NCBI GenBank assembly: GCA_017608385.1
Contig: JAFCFZ010000001.1
Location: 8,734 to 72,733 of the forward strand
Length of the DNA: 64,000 bases
Reading direction: 5' to 3'
Origin: Candidatus Parvarchaeota archaeon
GTDB lineage: Archaea; Nanobdellota; Nanobdellia; B33-G15
Shown piece after piece: positions 4,412 to 59,163 of this stretch. Under the pieces are notes generated by a model. It saw nothing but the letters and a program-made list of their open reading frames with translations, was not told the DNA's origin and did not search any database. Numbering within the stretch: the stretch's first letter is position 1; the number at the start of each line of letters is the position of its first letter. Both the position numbers and the translations under genes were made by a program.

Positions 4412-4528
4412 TGCCCACGGTCATAGTTTTGGGGGAAACACCCGTTCCCATTTCGAACACGGAAGTTAAGCCCCAAAGCGTTATTGGGTGTACTGTCTAA
4501 CGACGGGAAACCAGTGAGCTGTGGGCAC
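4412..4528 (+). rRNA. rrf: 5S ribosomal RNA, stand-alone and not linked to 16S/23S
   Basis: The sequence contains the conserved 5S core ...GGTCATAG...CCCGTTCCCATTTCGAACACGGAAGTTAAGCCCC...GTACTG.... The terminal helix pairs 5' TGCCCACGG with 3' CTGTGGGCA. The region is GC-enriched relative to its flanks and is about 117 nt long. Confidence 0.85.
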
Positions 4529-5504: not shown

Positions 5505-5675
5505 ATGGCAAGAAACAAGAGAAAATCCGTGAAAACAAGACTTCTGAAAGCAGGGAAGATAAATAGACCCGCTACTTATTGGGCTATTGTTAGGAAATTT
5601 GGAAAAAGAGGACACAGATGGAGATTAAACCCTCAAGCTAGAAGACATTGGAGGAAAGATAAAATTAAGGTGTGA
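5505..5675 (+). CDS. rpl39e: Ribosomal protein L39e (56 aa, too short for the ORF track)
   Basis: ATG at 5505 gives MARNKRKSVKTRLLKAGKINRPATYWAIVRKFGKRGHRWRLNPQARRHWRKDKIKV with TGA at 5673-5675. It is very basic and fits the L39e pattern. Confidence 0.75.
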   Translation: MARNKRKSVKTRLLKAGKINRPATYWAIVRKFGKRGHRWRLNPQARRHWRKDKIKV

Positions 5676-5677
5676 AT

Positions 5678-6309: not shown

Positions 6310-6721
6310 GATACCTAAAGGATTATCACAGGAAGAAATTCAAAACAAAGCAGTAGAAATGGAAATGTTAAGGCAGAATATGCAGCAATTAGATCAACAA
6401 TTGATTGCATTAGAAACAAGAAAAATGCAAATTGAAGAAGTTTTGAAGGCAATTACTCAAATAAAGGGTGGAGAAGACATTTTACTCCCATTAGGTCCTG
6501 GTTTCTTTATTAAAGGTAATTTGAAGAAAACTGACAAAGTTATTGTTGCGGTTGGAGCTAATATGGCTCTTGAGAAGAGGATGTCTGAATCAAAAGATGA
6601 CATTGAAAAGAATTTGAAGGAAATTGATAAGATATCTAATAATCTTAAATCTGAATTATTAAGAGCTTCTGAACATATGGAAGAAACACAGAAAATCCTA
6701 ATAAAGTACTATGGCGGTTAA
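6284..6721 (+). CDS. pfdA: Prefoldin alpha subunit; start codon uncertain (6284 overlapping rplX, or internal Met at 6356)
   Basis: The protein has two long heptad coiled-coil arms (MLRQNMQQLDQQLIALETRKMQIEEVLKAI ... EKNLKEIDKISNNLKSELLRASEHMEE) flanking a beta hairpin (LLPLGPGFFIKGNL...VIVAVGANMALE). It lies in the conserved position upstream of ftsY. Confidence 0.65.
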   Translation: MGLRKLVSEIPKGLSQEEIQNKAVEMEMLRQNMQQLDQQLIALETRKMQIEEVLKAITQIKGGEDILLPLGPGFFIKGNLKKTDKVIVAVGANMALEKRMSESKDDIEKNLKEIDKISNNLKSELLRASEHMEETQKILIKYYGG

Positions 6722-7748
6722 AATGCTAGGATTTCTGAAAAAAAAGCTGAAGAATGCTGTTGAAGAAGTTAAAAAAAAGGTAGGGTCTGAAACTCCTGAG
6801 GAAGTTAAGCCAAAGATTTCTAAGAAAGCTCCAAAAATTTCAAAAAAGCCTGTTTCTAAAAAACAAGTCAGAAAAGAAGTTATCGAAGAAGAGACTCAAA
6901 AATTAGGCTTTCGTGAAAGGGTTAAACAAAGATTCATTAAAAAAATAAGTGCCTCTGAATTTGAAGAAATATTTTTCGAGTTTGAGATGGCTCTTTTAGA
7001 GAATAATGTTGCTCAAGAAGTTGTAGAAAAACTAAAATTAGATATGAAAAAGGAATTTGTTGGAGAAGAAACTAAAAAAAGGAGAACACTAGAAAAAGTG
7101 ATACTTGACTCATTTAATGAGATCCTTATTGAAGGTAAATTTAAGATCCCAACCAAAAAGCCCTTTGTTTGTATGTTTATTGGAGTAAATGGTGTTGGTA
7201 AAACAACAAGTATGGCTAAGTTAGCATATTATCTCCAAAAAAAGAAGAAAAAATTGGTTTTTGCTGCATCTGATACTTTTAGAGCTGCTTCTATTGAACA
7301 ACTAGAAAAACATGGAAACAAACTAAAAATAAAGGTGATAAAACATAGTTATGGGGCAGATGCTGCTGCGGTTTCATTTGATGCAATAAACTATGCTAAA
7401 AAACATAATCTTAATTTTGTTCTTATAGACACTGCTGGGAGAATGCATTCTAACAAAAATCTAATGGATGAACTAAAGAAAATTAAAAGAGTTTCCAATC
7501 CTGATTTTGTGTTTTTTGTTGCTGATTCATTAACTGGAAATGATGCAGTTAATCAAGCTAAAACATTCAATGAAGAAATAGGATTTGATGGAATCATTCT
7601 AACTAAATCTGATGTTGACCAAAAAGGTGGAGCTATTATCTCAGTAAGTTACGTCACTGGAAAACCAATATATTTCCTTGGGATGGGACAAAATTACAAA
7701 GATTTGAAACCTTTCAAGAAGCAAGAGATCTTGAATAAAATAATTTAA
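6711..7748 (+). CDS. ftsY: Signal recognition particle receptor FtsY
   Basis: A Lys-rich N-terminal region is followed by an NG domain with GVNGVGKTTSMAKLA, DTFRAAS, DTAGR, LTKSDVDQKGG. Confidence 0.85.
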   Translation: MAVKMLGFLKKKLKNAVEEVKKKVGSETPEEVKPKISKKAPKISKKPVSKKQVRKEVIEEETQKLGFRERVKQRFIKKISASEFEEIFFEFEMALLENNVAQEVVEKLKLDMKKEFVGEETKKRRTLEKVILDSFNEILIEGKFKIPTKKPFVCMFIGVNGVGKTTSMAKLAYYLQKKKKKLVFAASDTFRAASIEQLEKHGNKLKIKVIKHSYGADAAAVSFDAINYAKKHNLNFVLIDTAGRMHSNKNLMDELKKIKRVSNPDFVFFVADSLTGNDAVNQAKTFNEEIGFDGIILTKSDVDQKGGAIISVSYVTGKPIYFLGMGQNYKDLKPFKKQEILNKII

Positions 7749-7789: not shown

Positions 7790-8683
7790 TCACATTCTTC
7801 TCAAAATATCGATTCTCTTTTCAGCTGGAGGATGTGTGGCAAATAAACTATCTAAAGCTGACTTTTTTGGATCAAAAAAGAAGATATGAGATACTGCTTC
7901 ACTTACTTTGAGACGATTTTTATTATGTTTAGATATTTTTTCAAGTGCATCTGCCAATGAATCGGGATTTCTGGTTAATTGAGCAGAACCCGCATCTGCC
8001 AAATACTCTCTCTTTCTTGAGATTGCTAGTTGGACTATTCTTGTGATTATGGGAGATAATATGGCAAGAATAATTGCTACTATCAAAAGAACCACTTCAA
8101 CTCCACTCTTATCCCTACTTCTATTTCCTCCAAACCACCACATCCTGATCATCATATTGCTGATTATAGCAACTAAACCTACCAATACTGCAACCAACAT
8201 TGAAAATCTAATATCATAATTTCTTATGTGAGCTATCTCATGAGCCATTACTCCTTCTATCTCATCTCTATCTAATTTTTTGAGTGCTCCTGTTGTTATA
8301 GCTACCACTGATTTACTTGGATCTGTTCCAGAAGCAAATGCATTGATGTCTTCAGAAGGGATCACATAGACTTTGGGTTTAGGAATCCCTGCTGCAATAC
8401 TTAATCCATCCACCACATTATGTAAGTGTAAATATTTCCTCTCATCAGCTAATTTAGCTCCCGTAGCTGACAAAACTACTTTGTATCCCTGTTTGTATCC
8501 AGCATAAATGTAAATTAAAACAAGGATCACTCCCATACTGATTATTATATAAGAATATTCATTGAAAAAAAAACTAATAATAATAATTAAAGAAAAAAGG
8601 ATTACTCCCACAAAAAAAGCAAGTGCTACGGATTTTCGCTTATTCGAATTAATTTGGTCAAAAACATCTATTCTTTGCTTCAT
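7790..8683 (-). CDS. htpX: HtpX-like M48 zinc metalloprotease
   Basis: It has the HEIAHIRNYD (HExxH) motif and four TM segments, and pairs with the neighbouring LemA gene. Confidence 0.75.
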   Translation of the reverse strand: MKQRIDVFDQINSNKRKSVALAFFVGVILFSLIIIISFFFNEYSYIIISMGVILVLIYIYAGYKQGYKVVLSATGAKLADERKYLHLHNVVDGLSIAAGIPKPKVYVIPSEDINAFASGTDPSKSVVAITTGALKKLDRDEIEGVMAHEIAHIRNYDIRFSMLVAVLVGLVAIISNMMIRMWWFGGNRSRDKSGVEVVLLIVAIILAILSPIITRIVQLAISRKREYLADAGSAQLTRNPDSLADALEKISKHNKNRLKVSEAVSHIFFFDPKKSALDSLFATHPPAEKRIDILRRM

Positions 8684-9246
8684 TATTCAAACTTCACATT
8701 TACCGGTGCTCTTTCGCTTGCGGCTATTTTTATAAATTCCTTGGCCCTTCTTCCCATAATGGCTGAAAACCATCTTCCTGGAATTGTTGTCACAGAATTG
8801 TTGTAAGTCAATATTGAATCATTGTAGTATTGTCTTGAGTAAGCTATTTTGTTCTCTATTCCTTCTAATTGTTCTTGTAACAATTTGAAGTTCTCGCTTG
8901 CCTGAAGTTTTGGGTAATTTTCAGCTATAGCAAAAACAGATCTTAAAGCAGATGTTAGTTGGTTACTTGCGTCAACCCTACCCTGTAAATTTCCTGCCTT
9001 TAACATATTTTCTCTTGCTTTAGTGACATTACTGAATATCTTTTTCTCGTGTTTTGCGTATCCTTTCACTGTTTCAACCAGATTTGGTACTAAATCTGTT
9101 CTTTTCTTGAGTTGTACATCAATTTGAGACAAAGCGTTGTCGATTCTATTACCCATTATAACGATTTTGTTATAATAGTAAAGTAATCCCAGGACAAATA
9201 GGAATATTGCTCCTACAATAACTCCAAAGATTATCCATTCAATCAT
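8683..9246 (-). CDS. LemA family protein
   Basis: An N-terminal TM helix is followed by the LemA core (NALSQIDVQLKKRTDLVPNLVETVKGYAKHEK...YYNDSILTYNN). The LemA-HtpX pair is conserved. Confidence 0.7.
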   Translation of the reverse strand: MIEWIIFGVIVGAIFLFVLGLLYYYNKIVIMGNRIDNALSQIDVQLKKRTDLVPNLVETVKGYAKHEKKIFSNVTKARENMLKAGNLQGRVDASNQLTSALRSVFAIAENYPKLQASENFKLLQEQLEGIENKIAYSRQYYNDSILTYNNSVTTIPGRWFSAIMGRRAKEFIKIAASERAPVNVKFE

Positions 9247-9325: not shown

Positions 9326-10150
9326 ATGGATAGAGGAGTACTAATGGAAATTAGAAGAGAGTATAGACAATATCGTGTAGAAAGAAAAGCATGGGAAGAA
9401 AGAACAGAGAAAAAAAGAGACGAACAACCTTCTCTAAATCAAATAGCAGAGAAATTAGATATAGAGGGCGTTACTGCTTCAAGAAAAGCAAAACAATACA
9501 ACTTATTTGAAGATTATTTAAAGAAATTATTAGAAATGAGGGGGGAAGAAATAATACAAGAAGGTTATCTTTTTTATCAGGCATTATCTAATGATTTTGT
9601 TAGGTTAATACATAAAAAAGTTAATGGTTCAAAAGATAAAAATTCATTTAATTTCCTTGTTTCTGAAGGTTTAGAACATCTATTAAGATCTTGGAAGAAA
9701 AAGAAGAGATTGGTGAGTGGAAAAAAACCCAAATTTTTGAAAAAGGATGGTTTAGTAGGTGTCCTTGTTGAAGATTTTATTGAGGAAGGACCTGTAGACA
9801 TAAAAGAGATGATGGATAGAAAGGATAAGGAAGACCAATTCACAGGACTTTATGACTTAGTTCTTTTGGACAAGAGTTTTTGGCAAACACCATTAGTGTT
9901 TTCTTTAACACGGCTTATTCCCCATTCTACCTTTACAAAAACAATTACACCTAAGTGTATAAGAAATGAACATCTTCAAAAATATGAAGTAAGTTTACCT
10001 TTTGGTTTTGAATACTTGATTGAATTAGGATTAGTAGAATTAACAAGTAGAACAATGAACAAAAGTAAATACGCTCTTACAGACGATGGTAAAAGATTTG
10101 CAAAAGCAATTAAACAAACTAAAAAATATCTTGGAATTTCTAGTCCTTAA
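9326..10150 (+). CDS. Hypothetical protein with HTH-like segments at both ends
   Basis: This 274-aa protein has a charged N-terminus, an HTH-like stretch (SLNQIAEKLDIEGVTASRKA) and a winged-helix-like stretch near the C-terminus (KYALTDDGKRFAKAI). I did not recognise a family. Confidence 0.35.
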   Translation: MDRGVLMEIRREYRQYRVERKAWEERTEKKRDEQPSLNQIAEKLDIEGVTASRKAKQYNLFEDYLKKLLEMRGEEIIQEGYLFYQALSNDFVRLIHKKVNGSKDKNSFNFLVSEGLEHLLRSWKKKKRLVSGKKPKFLKKDGLVGVLVEDFIEEGPVDIKEMMDRKDKEDQFTGLYDLVLLDKSFWQTPLVFSLTRLIPHSTFTKTITPKCIRNEHLQKYEVSLPFGFEYLIELGLVELTSRTMNKSKYALTDDGKRFAKAIKQTKKYLGISSP

Positions 10151-10453
10151 TGGAAACATTTAAAAGGTGTTTTCTGCTTGTTGAAAAGCAATGTTAAGAA
10201 CAATGTTTGTGCAAGAAGGAAACACCATTAGAAATATGGTAAGAGAAGGAGAAATTGTATTTGCCCCTTCATTAGGTGGTAGAATTACAAGAGAAAAAGA
10301 CAAACTCTTTCTAATTACTAGCACAAAGAAGATTGAAATTCCACGAGATTTGATCCATAAAATCAAAATCAGAAAGGAAAATAACAGAAAAATAGCTTAT
10401 TCTGAATAGATTACTTTGATAGTAACATTTAAAAACTAAAGAAAGGTCCTTTT

Positions 10454-10545
10454 AGTGAACAGGATGTATGAAGATCACGGTCTTCATGTGACAAACTAGA
10501 TTCGCAAGGATTCTGTGAGTTGGAGGAAACTCCGTCTTGTTCACT
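10454..10545 (+). ncRNA. Candidate structured RNA element (GC-enriched multi-stem) immediately upstream of SRP54
   Basis: The region is about 45% GC while its flanks are about 25%. An 11-bp outer stem pairs AGTGAACAGGA (10454-10464) with TCTTGTTCACT (10535-10545). Inside it there is a 7-bp hairpin ATGAAGA-TCACGG-TCTTCAT (10468-10487) and a GGAG-GAAA-CTCC GNRA hairpin (10522-10533). The strand is not established. Confidence 0.35.
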
Positions 10546-10628
10546 TATATTTCTATAAATAGCCAATAAAATTTCTTTTTTGGATTATCCTGAATAGATT
10601 TAAAAACCTGCTTTCTATTGAAATTTTC

Positions 10629-11921
10629 ATGTTTGATGGCGTTAAAGGGATATTTAAGAAAATATTCAGAGCAGGATATGTAGATGAAAAACTCTTAGAG
10701 GAGATTATAAGAGACTTACAAAGAGAATTGATTTCTTCGGATGTAGATGTTAAATTAGTTTCACAAATATCAAAAAATATCAGGGAAAATATACTTAAAA
10801 AAAGAAAAGAATTCAGCAAAAAAGAACAGATTGTCAAGGCTATTTACGATGAATTGGTTAATTTATTAGGAGAAGGTGGAAAAATAGACATTTCTAAGAA
10901 ACCATATAAGATTTTATTAGTTGGTTTATTTGGTTCTGGTAAAACAACCACTTCAGCAAAATTAGCAGCACTTTACAAGAAAAAAGGATACAAAGTACTC
11001 TTATTAGGTGTAGACACATTTAGACCCGCTGCTCAAGAACAATTAAAGCAATTGGGAGAAAAAATAAGTGTTCCTGTTTATGCTGAGAAAAAAATGAAGG
11101 ATACTTTCAAATTATTTGAAAAGGACACTAAAAAATATGATGTTATAATTACAGATTCAGCAGGAAGGGACGCTTTAGATAAATCATTGATAAAGGAAAT
11201 AAAGGAGATAAATAAGAAATTCAAGCCAGATAATACTCAATTAGTTTTAAGTGGAGATATCGGACAAAATGCGAGGAAACAAGCAGAAGAATTCCACAAA
11301 AACCTTGCAATTAAGGGAGTTATTGTAACAAAGTTAGATGGTACTGCTAAAGGAGGAGGAGCTTTAGTTGCTTGTTCTATTTCCGGAGTCAAAGTTAGTT
11401 ATGTAGGTGTGGGGGAAAAAATAACAGATCTAGAAGAATTTCATCCAACAAGATTTATCTCAAGAATAACAGGTATGGGAGATTTAGAAACCTTATTGGA
11501 AAAAGCCGGGGAAATAATTGATGAGGAAAAAGCAGAAAAAGATGCTAAAAAATTCATGTCTGGTGATATTAACTTGCTTGATTTGTATGAGCAATTAGGA
11601 AATTTAGAACAAATGGGTTCTTTAGATAAAGTAATGAATATGATTCCTGGACTATCTATGGCTAAACTTCCAAAAAAAATGGATGTCGAAGAGGAAAAAA
11701 TGAAGAAATTCAGAAATGTTATGGATTCCATGACCAAAGAAGAACTAGAGAATCCAAAATTACTTAATGCTTCAAGAGTCAAACGAATAGCAAAAGGCGC
11801 TGGAGCAACTGAATCAAATGTCAGAGCTTTAATAAAGCAATATAATACAATGAAAAAAGCAGTTAAAGGCTTAGGAAACAAAAAATTAATGAAAATGATG
11901 AAAAGGTTTGGGTTAGGATGA
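10629..11921 (+). CDS. srp54: Signal recognition particle protein SRP54
   Basis: The N domain and G domain carry GLFGSGKTTTSAKLA, DTFRPAA, DSAGR, TKLDGTAKGGGA, followed by a Met-rich M domain (MNMIPGLSMAKLPKKM...LMKMMKRFG). Confidence 0.9.
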   Translation: MFDGVKGIFKKIFRAGYVDEKLLEEIIRDLQRELISSDVDVKLVSQISKNIRENILKKRKEFSKKEQIVKAIYDELVNLLGEGGKIDISKKPYKILLVGLFGSGKTTTSAKLAALYKKKGYKVLLLGVDTFRPAAQEQLKQLGEKISVPVYAEKKMKDTFKLFEKDTKKYDVIITDSAGRDALDKSLIKEIKEINKKFKPDNTQLVLSGDIGQNARKQAEEFHKNLAIKGVIVTKLDGTAKGGGALVACSISGVKVSYVGVGEKITDLEEFHPTRFISRITGMGDLETLLEKAGEIIDEEKAEKDAKKFMSGDINLLDLYEQLGNLEQMGSLDKVMNMIPGLSMAKLPKKMDVEEEKMKKFRNVMDSMTKEELENPKLLNASRVKRIAKGAGATESNVRALIKQYNTMKKAVKGLGNKKLMKMMKRFGLG

Positions 11922-20636: not shown

Positions 20637-20722
20637 GGCGGGGTGACCGAACGGCCAGGTGGTCGGCTGCAAAGATTTATCACAGCTACCGACATAATTG
20701 GGTTCGACTCCCAACCCCGCCT
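20637..20722 (+). tRNA. tRNA-Cys(GCA) with a 15-nt intron in the anticodon loop
   Basis: The acceptor stem pairs GGCGGGG with CCCCGCC. The T arm is TTGGG-TTCGACT-CCCAA and the discriminator is U73, which is a Cys identity element. The anticodon stem pairs GTCGG with CCGAC, and the loop reads CTGCAA, so U33 and anticodon GCA. About 15 nt (AGATTTATCACAGCT) are inserted after position 37. There is no encoded CCA. It lies 16 bp upstream of cysS. Confidence 0.75.
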
Positions 20723-44613: not shown

Positions 44614-46233
44614 ATGCCTATTGAAGAAAAATGGTTTTTTGAGGAGGAGGAGGAAGAGGATTCTGATGGAGAGTCTTCTGACTCTGATGGAGAGTCTTCT
44701 GACTCTGATGGAGGTTCATCTAAAAAACAGGGGGGCTGGGCCTACATAATAATGAGTATTGTTTTTGGATTTGTTGGATTTCTTATTTTAGGATTATTGG
44801 GTGGTTTTCTTCTCTTTATATTTCCATTAATTATCTGGTACTTTGGACCAGGAAAGGGAGTCAATTTTGTTATTTTGATTCTTGCTGCTTTTTTGGGATT
44901 GTGGTTTGGTGGAATTTTAGCAGCATTTCTTCTTCCTCTCCCAATTGCAGCTTGGTTATTTAGTGGTTCTTTCTTTGGAGAAGAAGGCGAAGGTAAATTT
45001 TTAAGAGGAATGTTAAGTATTGCTGCATTTATTCCGTTTTTCCTCGTATTTTTGTGGCCAATGATAGGAAGTTTTTTTGGATCTCAAGTTGCAATGGTTG
45101 GAACAAGCTTTGATGATTTTATTGGTATGATAAGTTCTCAAAAAGATCTTTTGATGAATGCAGATTATCAAAGATATTTAGGAGTTCAACAAAGTGTTTA
45201 TGATACTTCTTCACAAACTTATTCAAGTCCTACTACTAGTTTTGAGATAAACAGTTTTACTATCTCTCCTGAAAGTGGATGTTTTGAATTAAACACAATG
45301 AACTTTTTTGGTGTTGTAAAAAACACGGGGACTTTGAATATTGAAGGTATGAAAACGGGATTTTATTTAGATCCCACTCAAATAGGAACTAATTGTGAAC
45401 AAACAATCACCCAAATGGGGCACAAATATAAATGTCTTCTTGGACAAGAATGTATTATGGGGAAATGTGGGCTTGTTTTAGGAGAATACTTCTTAAATGC
45501 TGTTGAACCAGATTGTACATCTCATCCAAATCATGAGAGATGGGGATGTTATTGTGTGGATGAAGATGAAGTTAATACTATGAATACATTATATCCAAAT
45601 GCAATTGGAACATTTACTAAAACGATTGAGATGATTGATCCAAGTGATCCTCTTGATGTTGTAGACGCTATAACATGTAGGTTATTTGCTTATGCTCAAG
45701 CAGAATATACTGTTAGATCAAGATTAGAAGTTTCAATGATAAACTCTGAGTATTACATACTTAAGGGATTAGTATTTTCATCTGTCCCAGCAGTTCAATC
45801 AATAGGTCCTGTTCAATTGAGAATGGGTGTTGGAACACAACCAATTATTAACAACGAAGATAAAAGAGTTTTAACTGTTGCTCTTGGTAATGAAGGAAAT
45901 GGAGAATTAATTGATCTCAATAGTGTCTCATTATATGTCCCTACAGAATTTTCATCAGCAGGATGTGAAGGAGGTCAATTTGTTAGAACAGTTTGTTCAA
46001 GCGCTCCATCTAATATAGATAATTGTGAGGAAATGAGAAGTGAGGGATATAATTTATTTGTATTAGCAGTTGAAGCAACTCCCTATTCCTCCTATTCATG
46101 CTCATTAACTATTAATGAAAATATAAAGAATCTAGGTGGTGAAAACCGAAGATCATTTGTATTTTTAGCAGATGCTTCATATAATTACATGGTCAAAGCT
46201 CCTGCATTCATAACAGGAAATAGGTGTGTTTAA
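44614..46233 (+). CDS. Polytopic membrane protein with an acidic SDGESSD repeat N-terminus and a Cys-containing extracellular C-domain
   Basis: The N-terminus reads EEEEEEDSDGESSDSDGESSDSDGGSS. It is followed by about 6 TM helices in roughly 180 aa, then a roughly 350-aa soluble domain with about 12 Cys. Confidence 0.5.
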   Translation: MPIEEKWFFEEEEEEDSDGESSDSDGESSDSDGGSSKKQGGWAYIIMSIVFGFVGFLILGLLGGFLLFIFPLIIWYFGPGKGVNFVILILAAFLGLWFGGILAAFLLPLPIAAWLFSGSFFGEEGEGKFLRGMLSIAAFIPFFLVFLWPMIGSFFGSQVAMVGTSFDDFIGMISSQKDLLMNADYQRYLGVQQSVYDTSSQTYSSPTTSFEINSFTISPESGCFELNTMNFFGVVKNTGTLNIEGMKTGFYLDPTQIGTNCEQTITQMGHKYKCLLGQECIMGKCGLVLGEYFLNAVEPDCTSHPNHERWGCYCVDEDEVNTMNTLYPNAIGTFTKTIEMIDPSDPLDVVDAITCRLFAYAQAEYTVRSRLEVSMINSEYYILKGLVFSSVPAVQSIGPVQLRMGVGTQPIINNEDKRVLTVALGNEGNGELIDLNSVSLYVPTEFSSAGCEGGQFVRTVCSSAPSNIDNCEEMRSEGYNLFVLAVEATPYSSYSCSLTINENIKNLGGENRRSFVFLADASYNYMVKAPAFITGNRCV

Positions 46234-51476: not shown

Positions 51477-51661
51477 TCTAGTACTTCCAAAACTTTTGCC
51501 TTTATTTTAGACTTTCCTCCAGTAGGTTCAACAAGCAATGATTTACATTTAGGACATTCAACTTTACTGGCTGCACTTCCAAAAACTACTGCTTCTGTTT
51601 TACATTTAGGACATTTTATTTTCAAAAACCTAGATTTTGGAGTTTGTATCATATCACTCAT
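51473..51661 (-). CDS. rps27e: Ribosomal protein S27e
   Basis: Taking the internal start MSDMIQTPKSRFLKIKCPKCKTEAVVFGSAASKVECPKCKSLLVEPTGGKSKI gives a 62-aa C4 zinc-finger protein. The ATG overlaps the L44e stop. Confidence 0.8.
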   Translation of the reverse strand: MSDMIQTPKSRFLKIKCPKCKTEAVVFGSAASKVECPKCKSLLVEPTGGKSKIKAKVLEVLE

Positions 51662-55287: not shown

Positions 55288-56373
55288 ATGAAAATGGTTG
55301 TAAGTTCTTGGATTCCTAGAAGTCATTTACATTTACTAGAAGTAAAAAAATCTTTGGACAAATTAAGTTTGATAATAAGCAATATCTCTCTTGAAGAAGA
55401 ATTGAAATGTTATATAGAGGGTTTTAGAGGTTACAAAAAGATAAAGTTTAGTATGAATCAAAATGGATTATATTCTTTTGTTTTGGAGAGTAAAAAAAGT
55501 TTAGAGGAAATAAGAGATGATATGTTTTATTTGTTTTTGGAGAGAATTGTAAAAAATTCCCACAAAGTTACATATAAACAAATAAAAAGAGATATATTGA
55601 AACCAGGAATAACAGTAACAATTATTTCTCCAAAAAAAGAAATGCCAAAAGAAAGCATTAAAATTGATGAATTTATCTTAAAATACGAAAAAGATTATTC
55701 AAAGAGTGAAATTAATTATATTTCTGGTCCAGAAAAAAAGGCAATATTATTAGCAGAAGACATTAATCTGTTGACTCTACTTTCTAAATCAAATTATGAT
55801 ATGATGGATGAAATGGAATTAGAATACCATAAAGCAGATAATATCTTTAATCTCTTAGGAAGTGAAATAGATCCAAAATCCTTGAAAAAAGTGGTTTTTT
55901 CTTTAGATTTAGTAAAAAAAAGGGCAGGAGAGATTATATCTAAAATAGAACATGGGGGTCAAGTAATCCAAAGGTTAATTAATAATTTTGAAAAAAACAA
56001 GTTTTATGAAAAAATTGAATTGAACAAATGGAGTTATCAAATAAAATCTGATCACAATTATGTTTTGAATCTGTGGGGTCTATTATTGAATTTTTTAAAA
56101 AATATAGATTTTGCAGCTGAAACAAGATTGACTTATCAAGAAATGATCGAATCAAGAAGAATACAGGGACTTTTAAGTATAGACAGTGCGGCAGTGATTT
56201 CTTCTCTTTTTATAGGAATATTCTTTTCAGAATTTGTAGGGGTAGGTGGAATTGTTCTACTCTTTGTTTTCTTAATTACTTGGATGTTTCTTTATAGGTT
56301 TTTTAAGACACTAAAATCGAAAGTTAGTGGTAAAGAATTAAAAGAACTAGGTATTGTAAAAAAGAATAATTAG
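55288..56373 (+). CDS. Hypothetical protein with C-terminal TM helices
   Basis: This 361-aa protein is helical and charged, with two C-terminal hydrophobic helices. No family was recognised. Confidence 0.35.
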   Translation: MKMVVSSWIPRSHLHLLEVKKSLDKLSLIISNISLEEELKCYIEGFRGYKKIKFSMNQNGLYSFVLESKKSLEEIRDDMFYLFLERIVKNSHKVTYKQIKRDILKPGITVTIISPKKEMPKESIKIDEFILKYEKDYSKSEINYISGPEKKAILLAEDINLLTLLSKSNYDMMDEMELEYHKADNIFNLLGSEIDPKSLKKVVFSLDLVKKRAGEIISKIEHGGQVIQRLINNFEKNKFYEKIELNKWSYQIKSDHNYVLNLWGLLLNFLKNIDFAAETRLTYQEMIESRRIQGLLSIDSAAVISSLFIGIFFSEFVGVGGIVLLFVFLITWMFLYRFFKTLKSKVSGKELKELGIVKKNN

Positions 56374-56693
56374 CTGTATTCTCTCCAGACCTTTTTACAT
56401 TTAGTACATTTATAAAATATAGTTGGTGCCTCATCACCTGCCCTTGTTTGTTCTACCCAAAAATATGCTGATTTATTACCACATTTTCTACATTCTTTAT
56501 CTATTTCAGGAAGTGTAATCTTCTCATCCTCATCTTTTATCAAAACTATCTTTTGTTTTTTTTCGCCCTTTTCAATTATTTTTTTATTGGTGTTAGAATA
56601 TTTATCACACTTTTTACAATAAAAGCTTCTTTTCCCCTTGTGCTCTTTTGGTACTAAAATACACCCACACTTCTGACAAAACATACTTCTCAA
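56370..56693 (-). CDS. tfs: Transcription factor S / RNAP subunit M (TFIIS-type zinc ribbon)
   Basis: An N-terminal Zn ribbon (FCQKCGCIL...YCKKCDK) is followed by the C-terminal TFIIS ribbon CRKCGNKSAYFWVEQTRAGDEAPTIFYKCTKCKKVW with its acidic hairpin. Confidence 0.8.
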   Translation of the reverse strand: MRSMFCQKCGCILVPKEHKGKRSFYCKKCDKYSNTNKKIIEKGEKKQKIVLIKDEDEKITLPEIDKECRKCGNKSAYFWVEQTRAGDEAPTIFYKCTKCKKVWREYS

Positions 56694-58267: not shown

Positions 58268-59163
58268 TGATTTTTAATATTCTTGAAACATTTAAAAACT
58301 TACTTGATATGGTTTTATTCATGATAAAAACTCCATTTAACTATGGAAAAGAAGTATTTGATAGTCCTAAGTCCGCAGTAGAACAATTTCTCAAAAAAAG
58401 TGGGGGAAGAGACAAAGATTTTATTGATTCAGGTATGAAAATTTTCAAAAATGAGGACAAATTAAGATCTTTTCTTCATGAATTTTATTTGTTAATGACA
58501 AAACAAAGAATTAGAGAATCTTACACTCCAGACATACTTGCCTCTCACTTAATTAATTCTTCAGAAGAAATAGATAAGATAATCAATACCTTTTATGAGA
58601 GAGCTAGTGAAATTTATGGACTTTATAGACCAGAGAAGTTCAAAAAACTAGATATTCAAAAATTAATAAAAAATATTGAAAAGGAAAAAGAAGGAGAAGA
58701 AGGAGATATGGGTTTTTATCTTGATAAAAAAACTCTTATTCTTTTGAAATCATATTCAAAACAGATAAAGGAATTGATAAAATTAAGAGAGGAAATAGTC
58801 AAAAATATTGAAACACTCATGAATTCATTTGCTAAGAATCTAAGTAAAGTATTGGGAGAGATGTTAGCCGCAAAAATTATCTCTATTGCGGGTTCATTAA
58901 AGAACCTAGTAAATATGCCAAGTAGCACTATTCAAGTATTGGGAGCTGAAAAAGCATTATTTAGACATTTAAGAAGTGGAACAAAACCACCAAAACATGG
59001 TGTAATAATTCAACATCCAATTGTTGCAAAAGCAAAGAAACAAGATAAAGGCAGATTTGCAAGGACTGTAGCTTCAAAAGCAGCAATTGCTGCTAAAATA
59101 GATTATTTTGATGGAGAATTCATAGGAGATAAACTTTTGAAAGAGTTGGAGGAAAGAAGATGA
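58267..59163 (+). CDS. nop5: C/D box snoRNP protein Nop5 (Nop56/58)
   Basis: A coiled-coil region is followed by NOSIC and Nop domains (LGEMLAAKIISIAGSLKNLVNMPSSTIQVLGAEKALFRHL...PKHGVIIQHPIV...KGRFARTVASKAAIAAKID). Confidence 0.85.
   Translation: MIFNILETFKNLLDMVLFMIKTPFNYGKEVFDSPKSAVEQFLKKSGGRDKDFIDSGMKIFKNEDKLRSFLHEFYLLMTKQRIRESYTPDILASHLINSSEEIDKIINTFYERASEIYGLYRPEKFKKLDIQKLIKNIEKEKEGEEGDMGFYLDKKTLILLKSYSKQIKELIKLREEIVKNIETLMNSFAKNLSKVLGEMLAAKIISIAGSLKNLVNMPSSTIQVLGAEKALFRHLRSGTKPPKHGVIIQHPIVAKAKKQDKGRFARTVASKAAIAAKIDYFDGEFIGDKLLKELEERR

Follow-up and report, generated by a model that had tools for sequence, protein, structure and literature searches.

The DNA upstream of srp54 in an uncultured DPANN archaeon (Candidatus Parvarchaeota archaeon, contig JAFCFZ010000001.1) contains a 92-nt element, which is a genuine, strand-specific, and exceptionally stable RNA-type structure, and an orphan of one species. 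The element lies on the forward strand at positions 10454-10545 of the 64-kb stretch that was analyzed (the window), between a 72-aa open reading frame (ORF72) and srp54. At present it is, at best, a candidate small RNA. The reading that we tentatively favor, at somewhat short of an even chance, is that it represents a young, lineage-specific, and independently transcribed small RNA gene; its transcription, its ends, and any function are what we infer from the DNA.

A stable, strand-specific fold upstream of srp54

The element was delimited by two inverted-repeat arms, 10454-10464 (AGTGAACAGGA) and 10535-10545 (TCTTGTTCACT), which form 10 Watson-Crick pairs and one G-T pair and therefore set its length at 92 nt. 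The box drawn around it in the initial annotation (10446-10546) contains the element, and only its exact span is corrected here. The three stems described there are present: an 11-bp closing stem with one G-U pair, which wobble pairs extend to 12 bp (P1), a perfect 7-bp hairpin (ATGAAGA-TCACGG-TCTTCAT), extended in the same way to 9 bp (P2), and a GGAG-GAAA-CTCC hairpin (P4). The length of the interval that holds the element (10151-10628, 478 bp) and its distance from the srp54 ATG at 10629 (83 nt) also agree with the earlier description. The parts of the fold are as follows.

10454-10465/10534-10545, forward strand: P1, closing helix, 12 bp
10467-10475/10480-10488, forward strand: P2, hairpin, 9 bp, loop CACG
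10489-10498, forward strand: linker between P2 and P3
10499-10506/10514-10521, forward strand: P3, middle arm, uncertain; the alternative is a GCAA-capped arm
10522-10525/10530-10533, forward strand: P4, hairpin GGAG-GAAA-CUCC, GAAA loop

The minimum free energy (MFE) of the exact 92-mer was -35.1 kcal/mol, compared with -21.4 +/- 3.1 kcal/mol in dinucleotide shuffles (n=200; z = -4.36), and none of the shuffles (0/200) folded as well. With flanks included, the z-score was -3.57. The whole 64-kb stretch was then represented by every 100-nt segment at a 5-nt step on both strands. By GC-corrected MFE the element ranked first among these ~25,000 overlapping segments (z = -4.26), and by raw MFE it ranked third, after a tRNA and a coding tandem repeat. 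On the reverse strand, only a weak fold forms (-22.9 kcal/mol, z = -1.41), because seven of the 33 pairs of the element are G-U. These pairs make the fold strand-specific, and an RNA-level rather than a DNA-level reading is thus favored. Pair probabilities in P1, P2, and P4 were 0.86-1.0, save for the outermost pairs (A1-U92, 0.72; U14-G35, 0.64). An alternative fold, in which the middle region becomes an irregular arm with a GCAA tetraloop at its tip, lies within 0.4 kcal/mol; it is an almost linker-free four-way junction, and is the MFE structure at 25 C. The fold is real, strand-specific, and beyond chance. Coding capacity at the element is limited to overlapping reverse-strand ORFs of 30 and 45 aa.

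The element also stands out by composition. Its GC content, earlier put at ~45% over a ~92-nt stretch, was measured at 43.5% over 92 nt, compared with 22-23% in the flanking spacers (10410-10453 and 10546-10628) and 30-34% in the neighboring genes, all of which lie below it. The background of about 25% GC that had been assumed is thus right for the spacers and wrong for the region, given the genes and the window mean of 31.5%. A crude intergenic screen of the window showed two non-coding stretches that were GC-richer than the element, 5S rRNA and an intron-containing tRNA-Cys, and no others; the remaining GC peaks were small ribosomal-protein genes. The sister lineage L035, despite 81% identity in SRP54, has a GC content of 45% as against 31.5% here, a large compositional shift; therefore, this genome has drifted strongly towards AT, and the element has not.

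Transcription signals and the origin of the segment

The features of the locus and of the 5S rRNA gene used for comparison are listed below; TATA spacings were measured from the TATA 5' edge.

4383, forward strand: TATA box of the 5S rRNA gene, 30 nt to the mature 5' end
4413-4527, forward strand: 5S rRNA (Rfam 5S model, 73.5 bits)
6711-7748, forward strand: ftsY
7790-8683, reverse strand: htpX
8683-9246, reverse strand: lemA
9326-10150, forward strand: 274-aa ORF
10159, forward strand: TATA box of ORF72, 32 nt to the ATG
10191-10409, forward strand: ORF72, a neighbor that lies outside the element; homolog in L035
10397-10412, forward strand: direct repeat D3, copy 1 (TTATTCTGAATAGATT), at the end of ORF72 (codons AYSE and stop)
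10424-10435, forward strand: promoter-like box of the element, resembling a transcription factor B recognition element plus TATA box (AACA + TTTAAAAA)
10428-10435, forward strand: TATA box of the element, 5' edge 26 nt before P1
10454-10545, forward strand: the structured element, 92 nt, between ORF72 and srp54
10546-10581, forward strand: U-rich trailer, likely termination tract, with TATATTTCT right after P1 and TTTCTTTTTT at 10572-10581
10585-10600, forward strand: direct repeat D3, copy 2 (TTATCCTGAATAGATT), just upstream of and overlapping the srp54 TATA box
10599-10606, forward strand: TATA box of srp54 (TTTAAAAA), 30 nt to the ATG, outside the element
10629-11921, forward strand: srp54, followed by a 52-aa ORF, L21e, rpoF, and DUF655

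In 16 genes of the window, a TTTA[AT]A[AT] heptamer peaks sharply 27-32 nt upstream of start codons, which indicates leaderless mRNAs and, by extension, a genome that is probably largely leaderless (examples of such TATA positions on the forward strand are 4824, 10159, 10599, and 58291). The box upstream of the element (AACATTTAAAAA) is nearly identical to the ORF72 promoter (10154-10165; repeat D2), and the string AACATTTAAAA(A) is common to these two and to 58287-58300. From the spacing, the transcription start site of the element would be predicted at ~10455-10460, which is the P1 base or a position just within it. Archaeal transcription terminates at oligo-T, and the oligo-T trailer downstream of P1 is a putative terminator. 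The 5S gene of the window is comparable, in that CTTATATATCT follows the gene and a T8 run lies ~27 nt downstream. The 5S and element promoters also have a TTTAAAA..TAAAGRAAGGT string in common; this likeness, which ranks ~8 of 6400 segments, is suggestive and not unique.

An independent archaeal small RNA gene would be expected to have a TFB recognition element and TATA box of its own at about -27, an oligo-T terminator, and a discrete, stable transcript; at the element, promoter-like and terminator-like signals lie at the canonical spacing. Together, these signals outline how the element could be expressed. TBP and TFB would bind the AACA-TTTAAAAA box at 10424-10435, and transcription would begin at the P1 base, at ~10455-10460. 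The RNA would fold into a compact four-helix junction, in which a closing helix of up to 12 bp joins a 9-bp hairpin, a middle arm of irregular shape, and a 4-bp hairpin capped by GAAA. Termination in the U-rich trailer (10546-10554) or in the T6 run (10576-10581) would yield an RNA of ~90-125 nt. As to function, we would guess at a stable RNA that binds protein or serves as a scaffold; an antisense regulator is disfavored, because the search for targets gave no signal.

A 16-nt direct repeat (TTATYCTGAATAGATT), whose two copies are identical at 15/16 positions, brackets a 172-nt segment that holds the element. In L035, the same repeat pair (1954-1976 and 2953-2977) surrounds a 304-aa reverse-strand gene that fills the space between ORF72 and srp54. 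Copy 2 is conserved there as TTTTCTGAATAGATTTAAAAACC, and the srp54-proximal copy of L035 (AGCTTTTCTGAATAGATT) matches the ORF72 end of our window in 18/19 positions. Judging from these repeats, ORF72 most likely lay directly next to the srp54 promoter at first, and DNA then entered at the junction, which was duplicated in the process; the ORF72-srp54 junction would then be an insertion hot spot that received different inserts in the two lineages. An element at such a hot spot would be evolutionarily young or recently acquired. A remnant of the L035 304-aa gene was considered and rejected, there being no protein or DNA similarity to the element. Miniature inverted-repeat transposable elements (MITEs) are recognized by terminal inverted repeats, target-site duplication, and multiple genomic copies. 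The element does have 11-bp inverted termini (repeat I7); the 16-nt repeat brackets the 172-nt segment and not these termini, and no second copy of the element was found within the 64-kb window or the loci of relatives.

Known RNA classes, conservation, and alternative readings

The element had been suspected to be none of tRNA, signal recognition particle (SRP) RNA, RNase P RNA, or box C/D RNA, and no such identity was found. A tRNA has a 7-bp acceptor stem, a T-arm with a GTTCRANYC-like loop, a D-arm, and a 7-nt anticodon loop. ARAGORN, run by default, with introns, and at an 80% threshold, made no call at 10454-10545; the T-loop motif is missing, and no Rfam tRNA model matched at E <= 10. 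The intron-aware run recovered tRNA-Cys at 20637-20722, which served as a positive control. SRP RNA is universally conserved, is ~300 nt long in archaea, and has a helix 8 with a GNRA loop and conserved symmetric and asymmetric loops. No archaeal or bacterial SRP model of Rfam matched (gathering threshold and E <= 10), the helix-8 GGAA..AGCA motif is absent, and the element itself is absent from relatives. Box C/D small RNAs, 50-70 nt long, have a C box (RUGAUGA) near the 5' end, a D box (CUGA) near the 3' end, and a kink-turn. Neither strand of 10436-10590 contains an exact C box or CUGA, the nearest C-box-like string, AUGAAGA, lies within the P2 helix, and the sole C/D match in a 601-nt Rfam search (10100-10700), snoJ26 at 10214-10271, is off the element. 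Archaeal H/ACA RNAs have a hairpin with a pseudouridylation pocket, a kink-turn or kink-loop in the upper stem, and an ACA box directly 3' of the lower stem. The element is a multi-branch junction without an internal-loop pocket; UAUAUU, not ACA, follows P1, and forward-strand ACA triplets occur only at 10459 and 10491. Finally, 5S rRNA is a three-way junction with loops A to E (RF00001). No 5S match was obtained in the element at E <= 10, and derivation from the 5S locus was also rejected, as the gene bodies are unrelated and the promoter likeness is of the rank given above.

Partial likenesses to several systems are nevertheless apparent. In AT-rich archaeal genomes, GC-rich non-coding RNA genes, such as the Hgc RNAs of Methanocaldococcus, reportedly stand out as composition islands (Klein, Misulovin and Eddy 2002, PNAS). 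Like Hgc RNAs, the element is a non-coding GC island in AT-rich intergenic DNA, with a stable fold, an upstream TATA box, and downstream oligo-T, and the GC-island criterion selects exactly 5S rRNA, tRNA-Cys, and the element in the window. Unlike Hgc RNAs, it matches no Rfam family, those of the Hgc RNAs included, and even the sister lineage does not conserve it. With the tRNA cloverleaf it shares a closing helix and three hairpin arms around a four-way junction, a length of ~90 nt, and a stable-RNA-like GC content; the 12 bp of P1 equal the stacked acceptor/T-stem minihelix of tRNA, which is a resemblance only. It differs in its 12-bp (rather than 7-bp) closing helix and in the lack of a T-loop, a D-loop GG, and a 7-nt anticodon loop. 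The 5S gene of the window has, similarly, a TATA box ~26-30 nt before a terminal 5'/3' helix, a TATAT-rich trailer, and a T-run ~30 nt downstream, and in several DPANN relatives the 5S gene occupies the same slot upstream of srp54; the branching pattern of 5S rRNA is different. The S domain of SRP RNA (helices 5, 6, and 8) also combines a closing helix with hairpins bearing GNRA-type loops, and srp54 is adjacent to the element, with ftsY near. In contrast to SRP RNA, the element has no helix-8 loop motifs, is 92 nt rather than ~300 nt long, and is missing in relatives with the same srp54.

Relatives were represented by 34 GTDB loci retrieved via SRP54 and by the contigs of the closest metagenomic SRP54 proteins. 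SRP54 of the window is 61-62% identical to metagenomic "Nanoarchaeota archaeon" proteins and shares no more than 50% identity with those GTDB representatives that are labelled Nanoarchaeia, Woesearchaeota, or Aenigmatarchaeota. Searches with the element by blastn and nhmmer returned the query itself only. In the srp54 upstream regions of 23 DPANN loci, no analogous GC-rich stable fold was found besides annotated tRNA and 5S genes; stable RNA genes in that position are a tRNA in L003 and 5S rRNA in L012, L017, L018, and L023. A viral match (L045) was rejected as a chance occurrence of two 10-mers in a phage ORF, with an unrelated interior.

The proposal that the element is a structured non-coding RNA was retained on intrinsic evidence, because of its strand-specific stability, its GC island, the TATA spacing, the T-run, the lack of coding capacity, and the lack of a match to a known class. 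The tRNA and 5S genes that other DPANN genomes carry upstream of srp54 speak for it as well. Several results weigh against its being a small RNA gene with its own promoter. The element is absent from all retrieved orthologous loci. Comparison of srp54 upstream regions, which had been proposed as a check, found it missing in L035-L037 (81% SRP54 identity), in L038 (64%), where lemA abuts srp54, and in L039-L042 (~62%), where ftsY does. There is therefore no support from conservation or covariation, which the initial annotation had itself named as counting against a non-coding RNA. The only other copy, in L043, is uninformative, since L043 is the same species (5 single-nucleotide polymorphisms in 4105 nt, none in the element). 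A covariance model of the element (R1) had no other match in 243 kb of window and DPANN loci, blastn with the element against phages and plasmids gave nothing meaningful, and four pattern scans of viral contigs revealed no relative of the element. The Rfam search that had been suggested was run on the whole window and on 10100-10700, at gathering and E-value thresholds, and left the structured core without a match; at E <= 10, the 601-nt search gave only a 3-nt overlap at the edge, by a weak 6A match at 10408-10456. An RNAduplex search for trans targets in all start regions of the window yielded nothing above shuffled controls. Moreover, P3 is ill-defined, with ambiguous pair probabilities of 0.46-0.67. 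Lastly, a start site 27-32 nt from the TATA box falls 1-6 nt inside the 5' arm of P1, so that the full 12-bp helix would form only in an ORF72 read-through transcript.

That last point fits a view that we consider improbable, though not negligibly so, in which the element belongs to the 3' UTR of ORF72. A leaderless ORF72 mRNA starting at 10191 would end in the closing helix followed by UAUAUUUCU and the T-run, and the structure would stabilize the 3' end and, as a terminator-insulator, block read-through into the leaderless srp54 promoter. The full 12-bp P1 indeed needs a start upstream of ~10454, the U-rich tract directly follows the helix, and this is the only examined genome with a co-directional, non-operon gene shortly upstream of a leaderless srp54 (the upstream neighbor is divergent in L035 and L038, and ftsY abuts srp54 in L039-L042), an arrangement that would explain the lineage-specificity of the element. 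On the other hand, archaeal termination is generally driven by oligo-T and does not need hairpins, a multi-branched 92-nt structure is much more complex than a terminator, a good TATA box lies at the canonical distance between the ORF72 stop and the element, and the ORF72 homolog of L035 lacks such a 3' structure. Less unlikely, in our estimate, but still doubtful, is that the element is a functionless young insert or gene-loss relic at a recombination hot spot; its hairpins, whether inherited or due to chance, would not have decayed yet, and it might derive from part of a foreign or palindromic (MITE-like) element of higher GC. This is consistent with the 172-nt segment bracketed by the 16-nt repeat (15/16), with the different insert (the 304-aa gene) flanked by the same repeat pair in L035, with the failure of every search to find a homolog, with the neighboring 274-aa ORF, which is also an ORFan (1.84 billion representatives), and with the GC content of the element (43.5%), which resembles the 45% of the sister lineage. 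Yet the adjoining spacers, at 22% GC, show that neutral DNA here is strongly AT-driven while the element is not, and seven G-U pairs and strand asymmetry are unexpected for a DNA palindrome or MITE termini. There is also no second copy in 64 kb and no similarity to the L035 304-aa gene in protein or DNA, and the fold, the top-ranked one of the window, is accompanied by correctly spaced promoter and terminator signals.

The remaining views we rate lower still. The initial annotation offered a 5' leader of srp54 as its other option, and this part of the proposal was not supported. A leader or riboswitch lies between the transcription start and the start codon of its gene and is conserved along with that gene. 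A riboswitch-like leader would require a long mRNA isoform starting at ~10458, in which the structure controls read-through of the T-run into srp54; srp54 begins 83 nt beyond the element on the same strand, and the T-run lies in between. The srp54 TATA box, however, sits downstream of the element, exactly 30 nt before the ATG, a spacing that fits the leaderless architecture of the genome and is identical in L035 (81% SRP54 identity) and L038 (64%), both of which lack the element. No Shine-Dalgarno sequence precedes the srp54 ATG, and no riboswitch family of Rfam matched. The promoter position shows srp54 as a gene that is most probably transcribed independently of the element, and leaderless, which leaves the leader the least probable option of all. 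Hardly more probable is a divergent known RNA (tRNA-like, SRP S-domain-like, or 5S-like), or a protein-binding inverted repeat acting as DNA. Standard tools did miss the genuine intron-containing tRNA-Cys of the window, the shape is cloverleaf-like, srp54 and ftsY are nearby, and the promoter region resembles that of the 5S gene (TTTAAAA..TAAAGRAAGGT). Against it are the silence of ARAGORN at the element with introns at 80%, the lack of a T-loop, helix-8 motif, exact C box, or D box on either strand, the lack of an Rfam match on the structured core at E <= 10, and the fact that the 5S promoter similarity is not unique; the G-U pairs argue against a DNA-level site. We would also give only a small chance to the element founding a hitherto undescribed class of compact four-way-junction RNAs, with a single species as its only host so far. 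The alternative fold has two GNRA-capped arms (GAAA and GCAA). On this view the element would be a stable RNA gene newly born or acquired at the hot spot under strong AT drift, and could possibly act as a tRNA-like or protein-binding scaffold.

A structured RNA gene that is very young and lineage-specific has rarely been documented in a DPANN archaeon with a reduced genome, and the favored small RNA gene would be such a case, should it prove to be transcribed. Genome-reduced DPANN archaea are expected to shed, not gain, non-essential elements, and their repertoire of non-coding RNAs is, to our knowledge, almost unexplored. Transcription would also mean that the combination of a GC island and fold stability still works as a criterion in such genomes. 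If untranscribed, the element would be a recent insert of local annotation value only, namely that srp54 is leaderless with its own promoter, and that ORF72 is a real gene.

Neighboring genes and other features of the window

ORF72, described as weak or doubtful in the initial annotation, has a homolog of identical length in L035 (1754-1972), with 56% amino-acid identity and conserved termini. Because it is conserved while the surrounding non-coding DNA is unalignable between the lineages, ORF72 is, by this comparison, a genuine, lineage-restricted protein gene. A conserved protein covering the region had been named as an argument against the RNA; ORF72 is conserved, but it stops 44 nt before the element and does not account for it. 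An AlphaFold2 model of ORF72 shows a small beta-rich fold (mean predicted local distance difference test score, 78.5), for which no match was found among PDB folds. A metagenome scan with the ORF72 alignment returned only L044, an unrelated GC-rich contig, bacterial and pseudopilin-like, which was rejected as a relative; the likeness is a short MFVQEGNT-containing stretch in a pseudopilin-like ORF, probably due to chance.

A long hairpin at 10136-10235 (forward strand) is the second most stable fold of the window (z = -4.28). The stop codon of the 274-aa ORF, the TATA box of ORF72, and ~15 codons at the ORF72 start all lie within it, and its 5' arm is not conserved in L035; it may, as an example, occlude the ORF72 start in read-through transcripts. 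The 274-aa ORF itself (9326-10150) was compared with 5.8 billion clustered and 1.84 billion representative proteins, and no homolog was found in either set. Only sub-threshold winged-helix matches, in its C-terminal part, were obtained, and it is absent from the sister lineage. In L039-L042 (~62% SRP54 identity), the gap between ftsY and srp54 is 23 nt; in the window, htpX, lemA, the 274-aa ORFan, and ORF72 intervene.

Two of the intergenic GC peaks reflect small basic protein genes, at 5506-5676 (forward strand) and 51477-51657 (reverse strand), whose products resemble, by eye only, L39e-like and zinc-ribbon S27e-like ribosomal proteins. A perfect tandem DNA repeat (GATTCTGATGGAGAGTCTTCTGAC...) at 44640-44720 (forward strand) lies within an ORF, codes for an acidic repeat rich in Ser, Asp, Gly, and Glu, and explains one top peak of both raw MFE and GC. 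The "tRNA-Lys" that aragorn -i called at 56005-56400 (reverse strand), with an intron of 299 nt, lies in AT-rich DNA antisense to a 361-aa ORF, and is therefore almost certainly a false positive. The unannotated tRNA-Cys(GCA) at 20637-20722 (forward strand) has ~59% GC and a 15-nt intron at position 37/38. It was missed by default ARAGORN and by Rfam gathering thresholds (the Rfam tRNA-Sec model matches it weakly, at 24 bits) and was found by aragorn -i; intron-containing tRNAs of this genome are thus easily overlooked.

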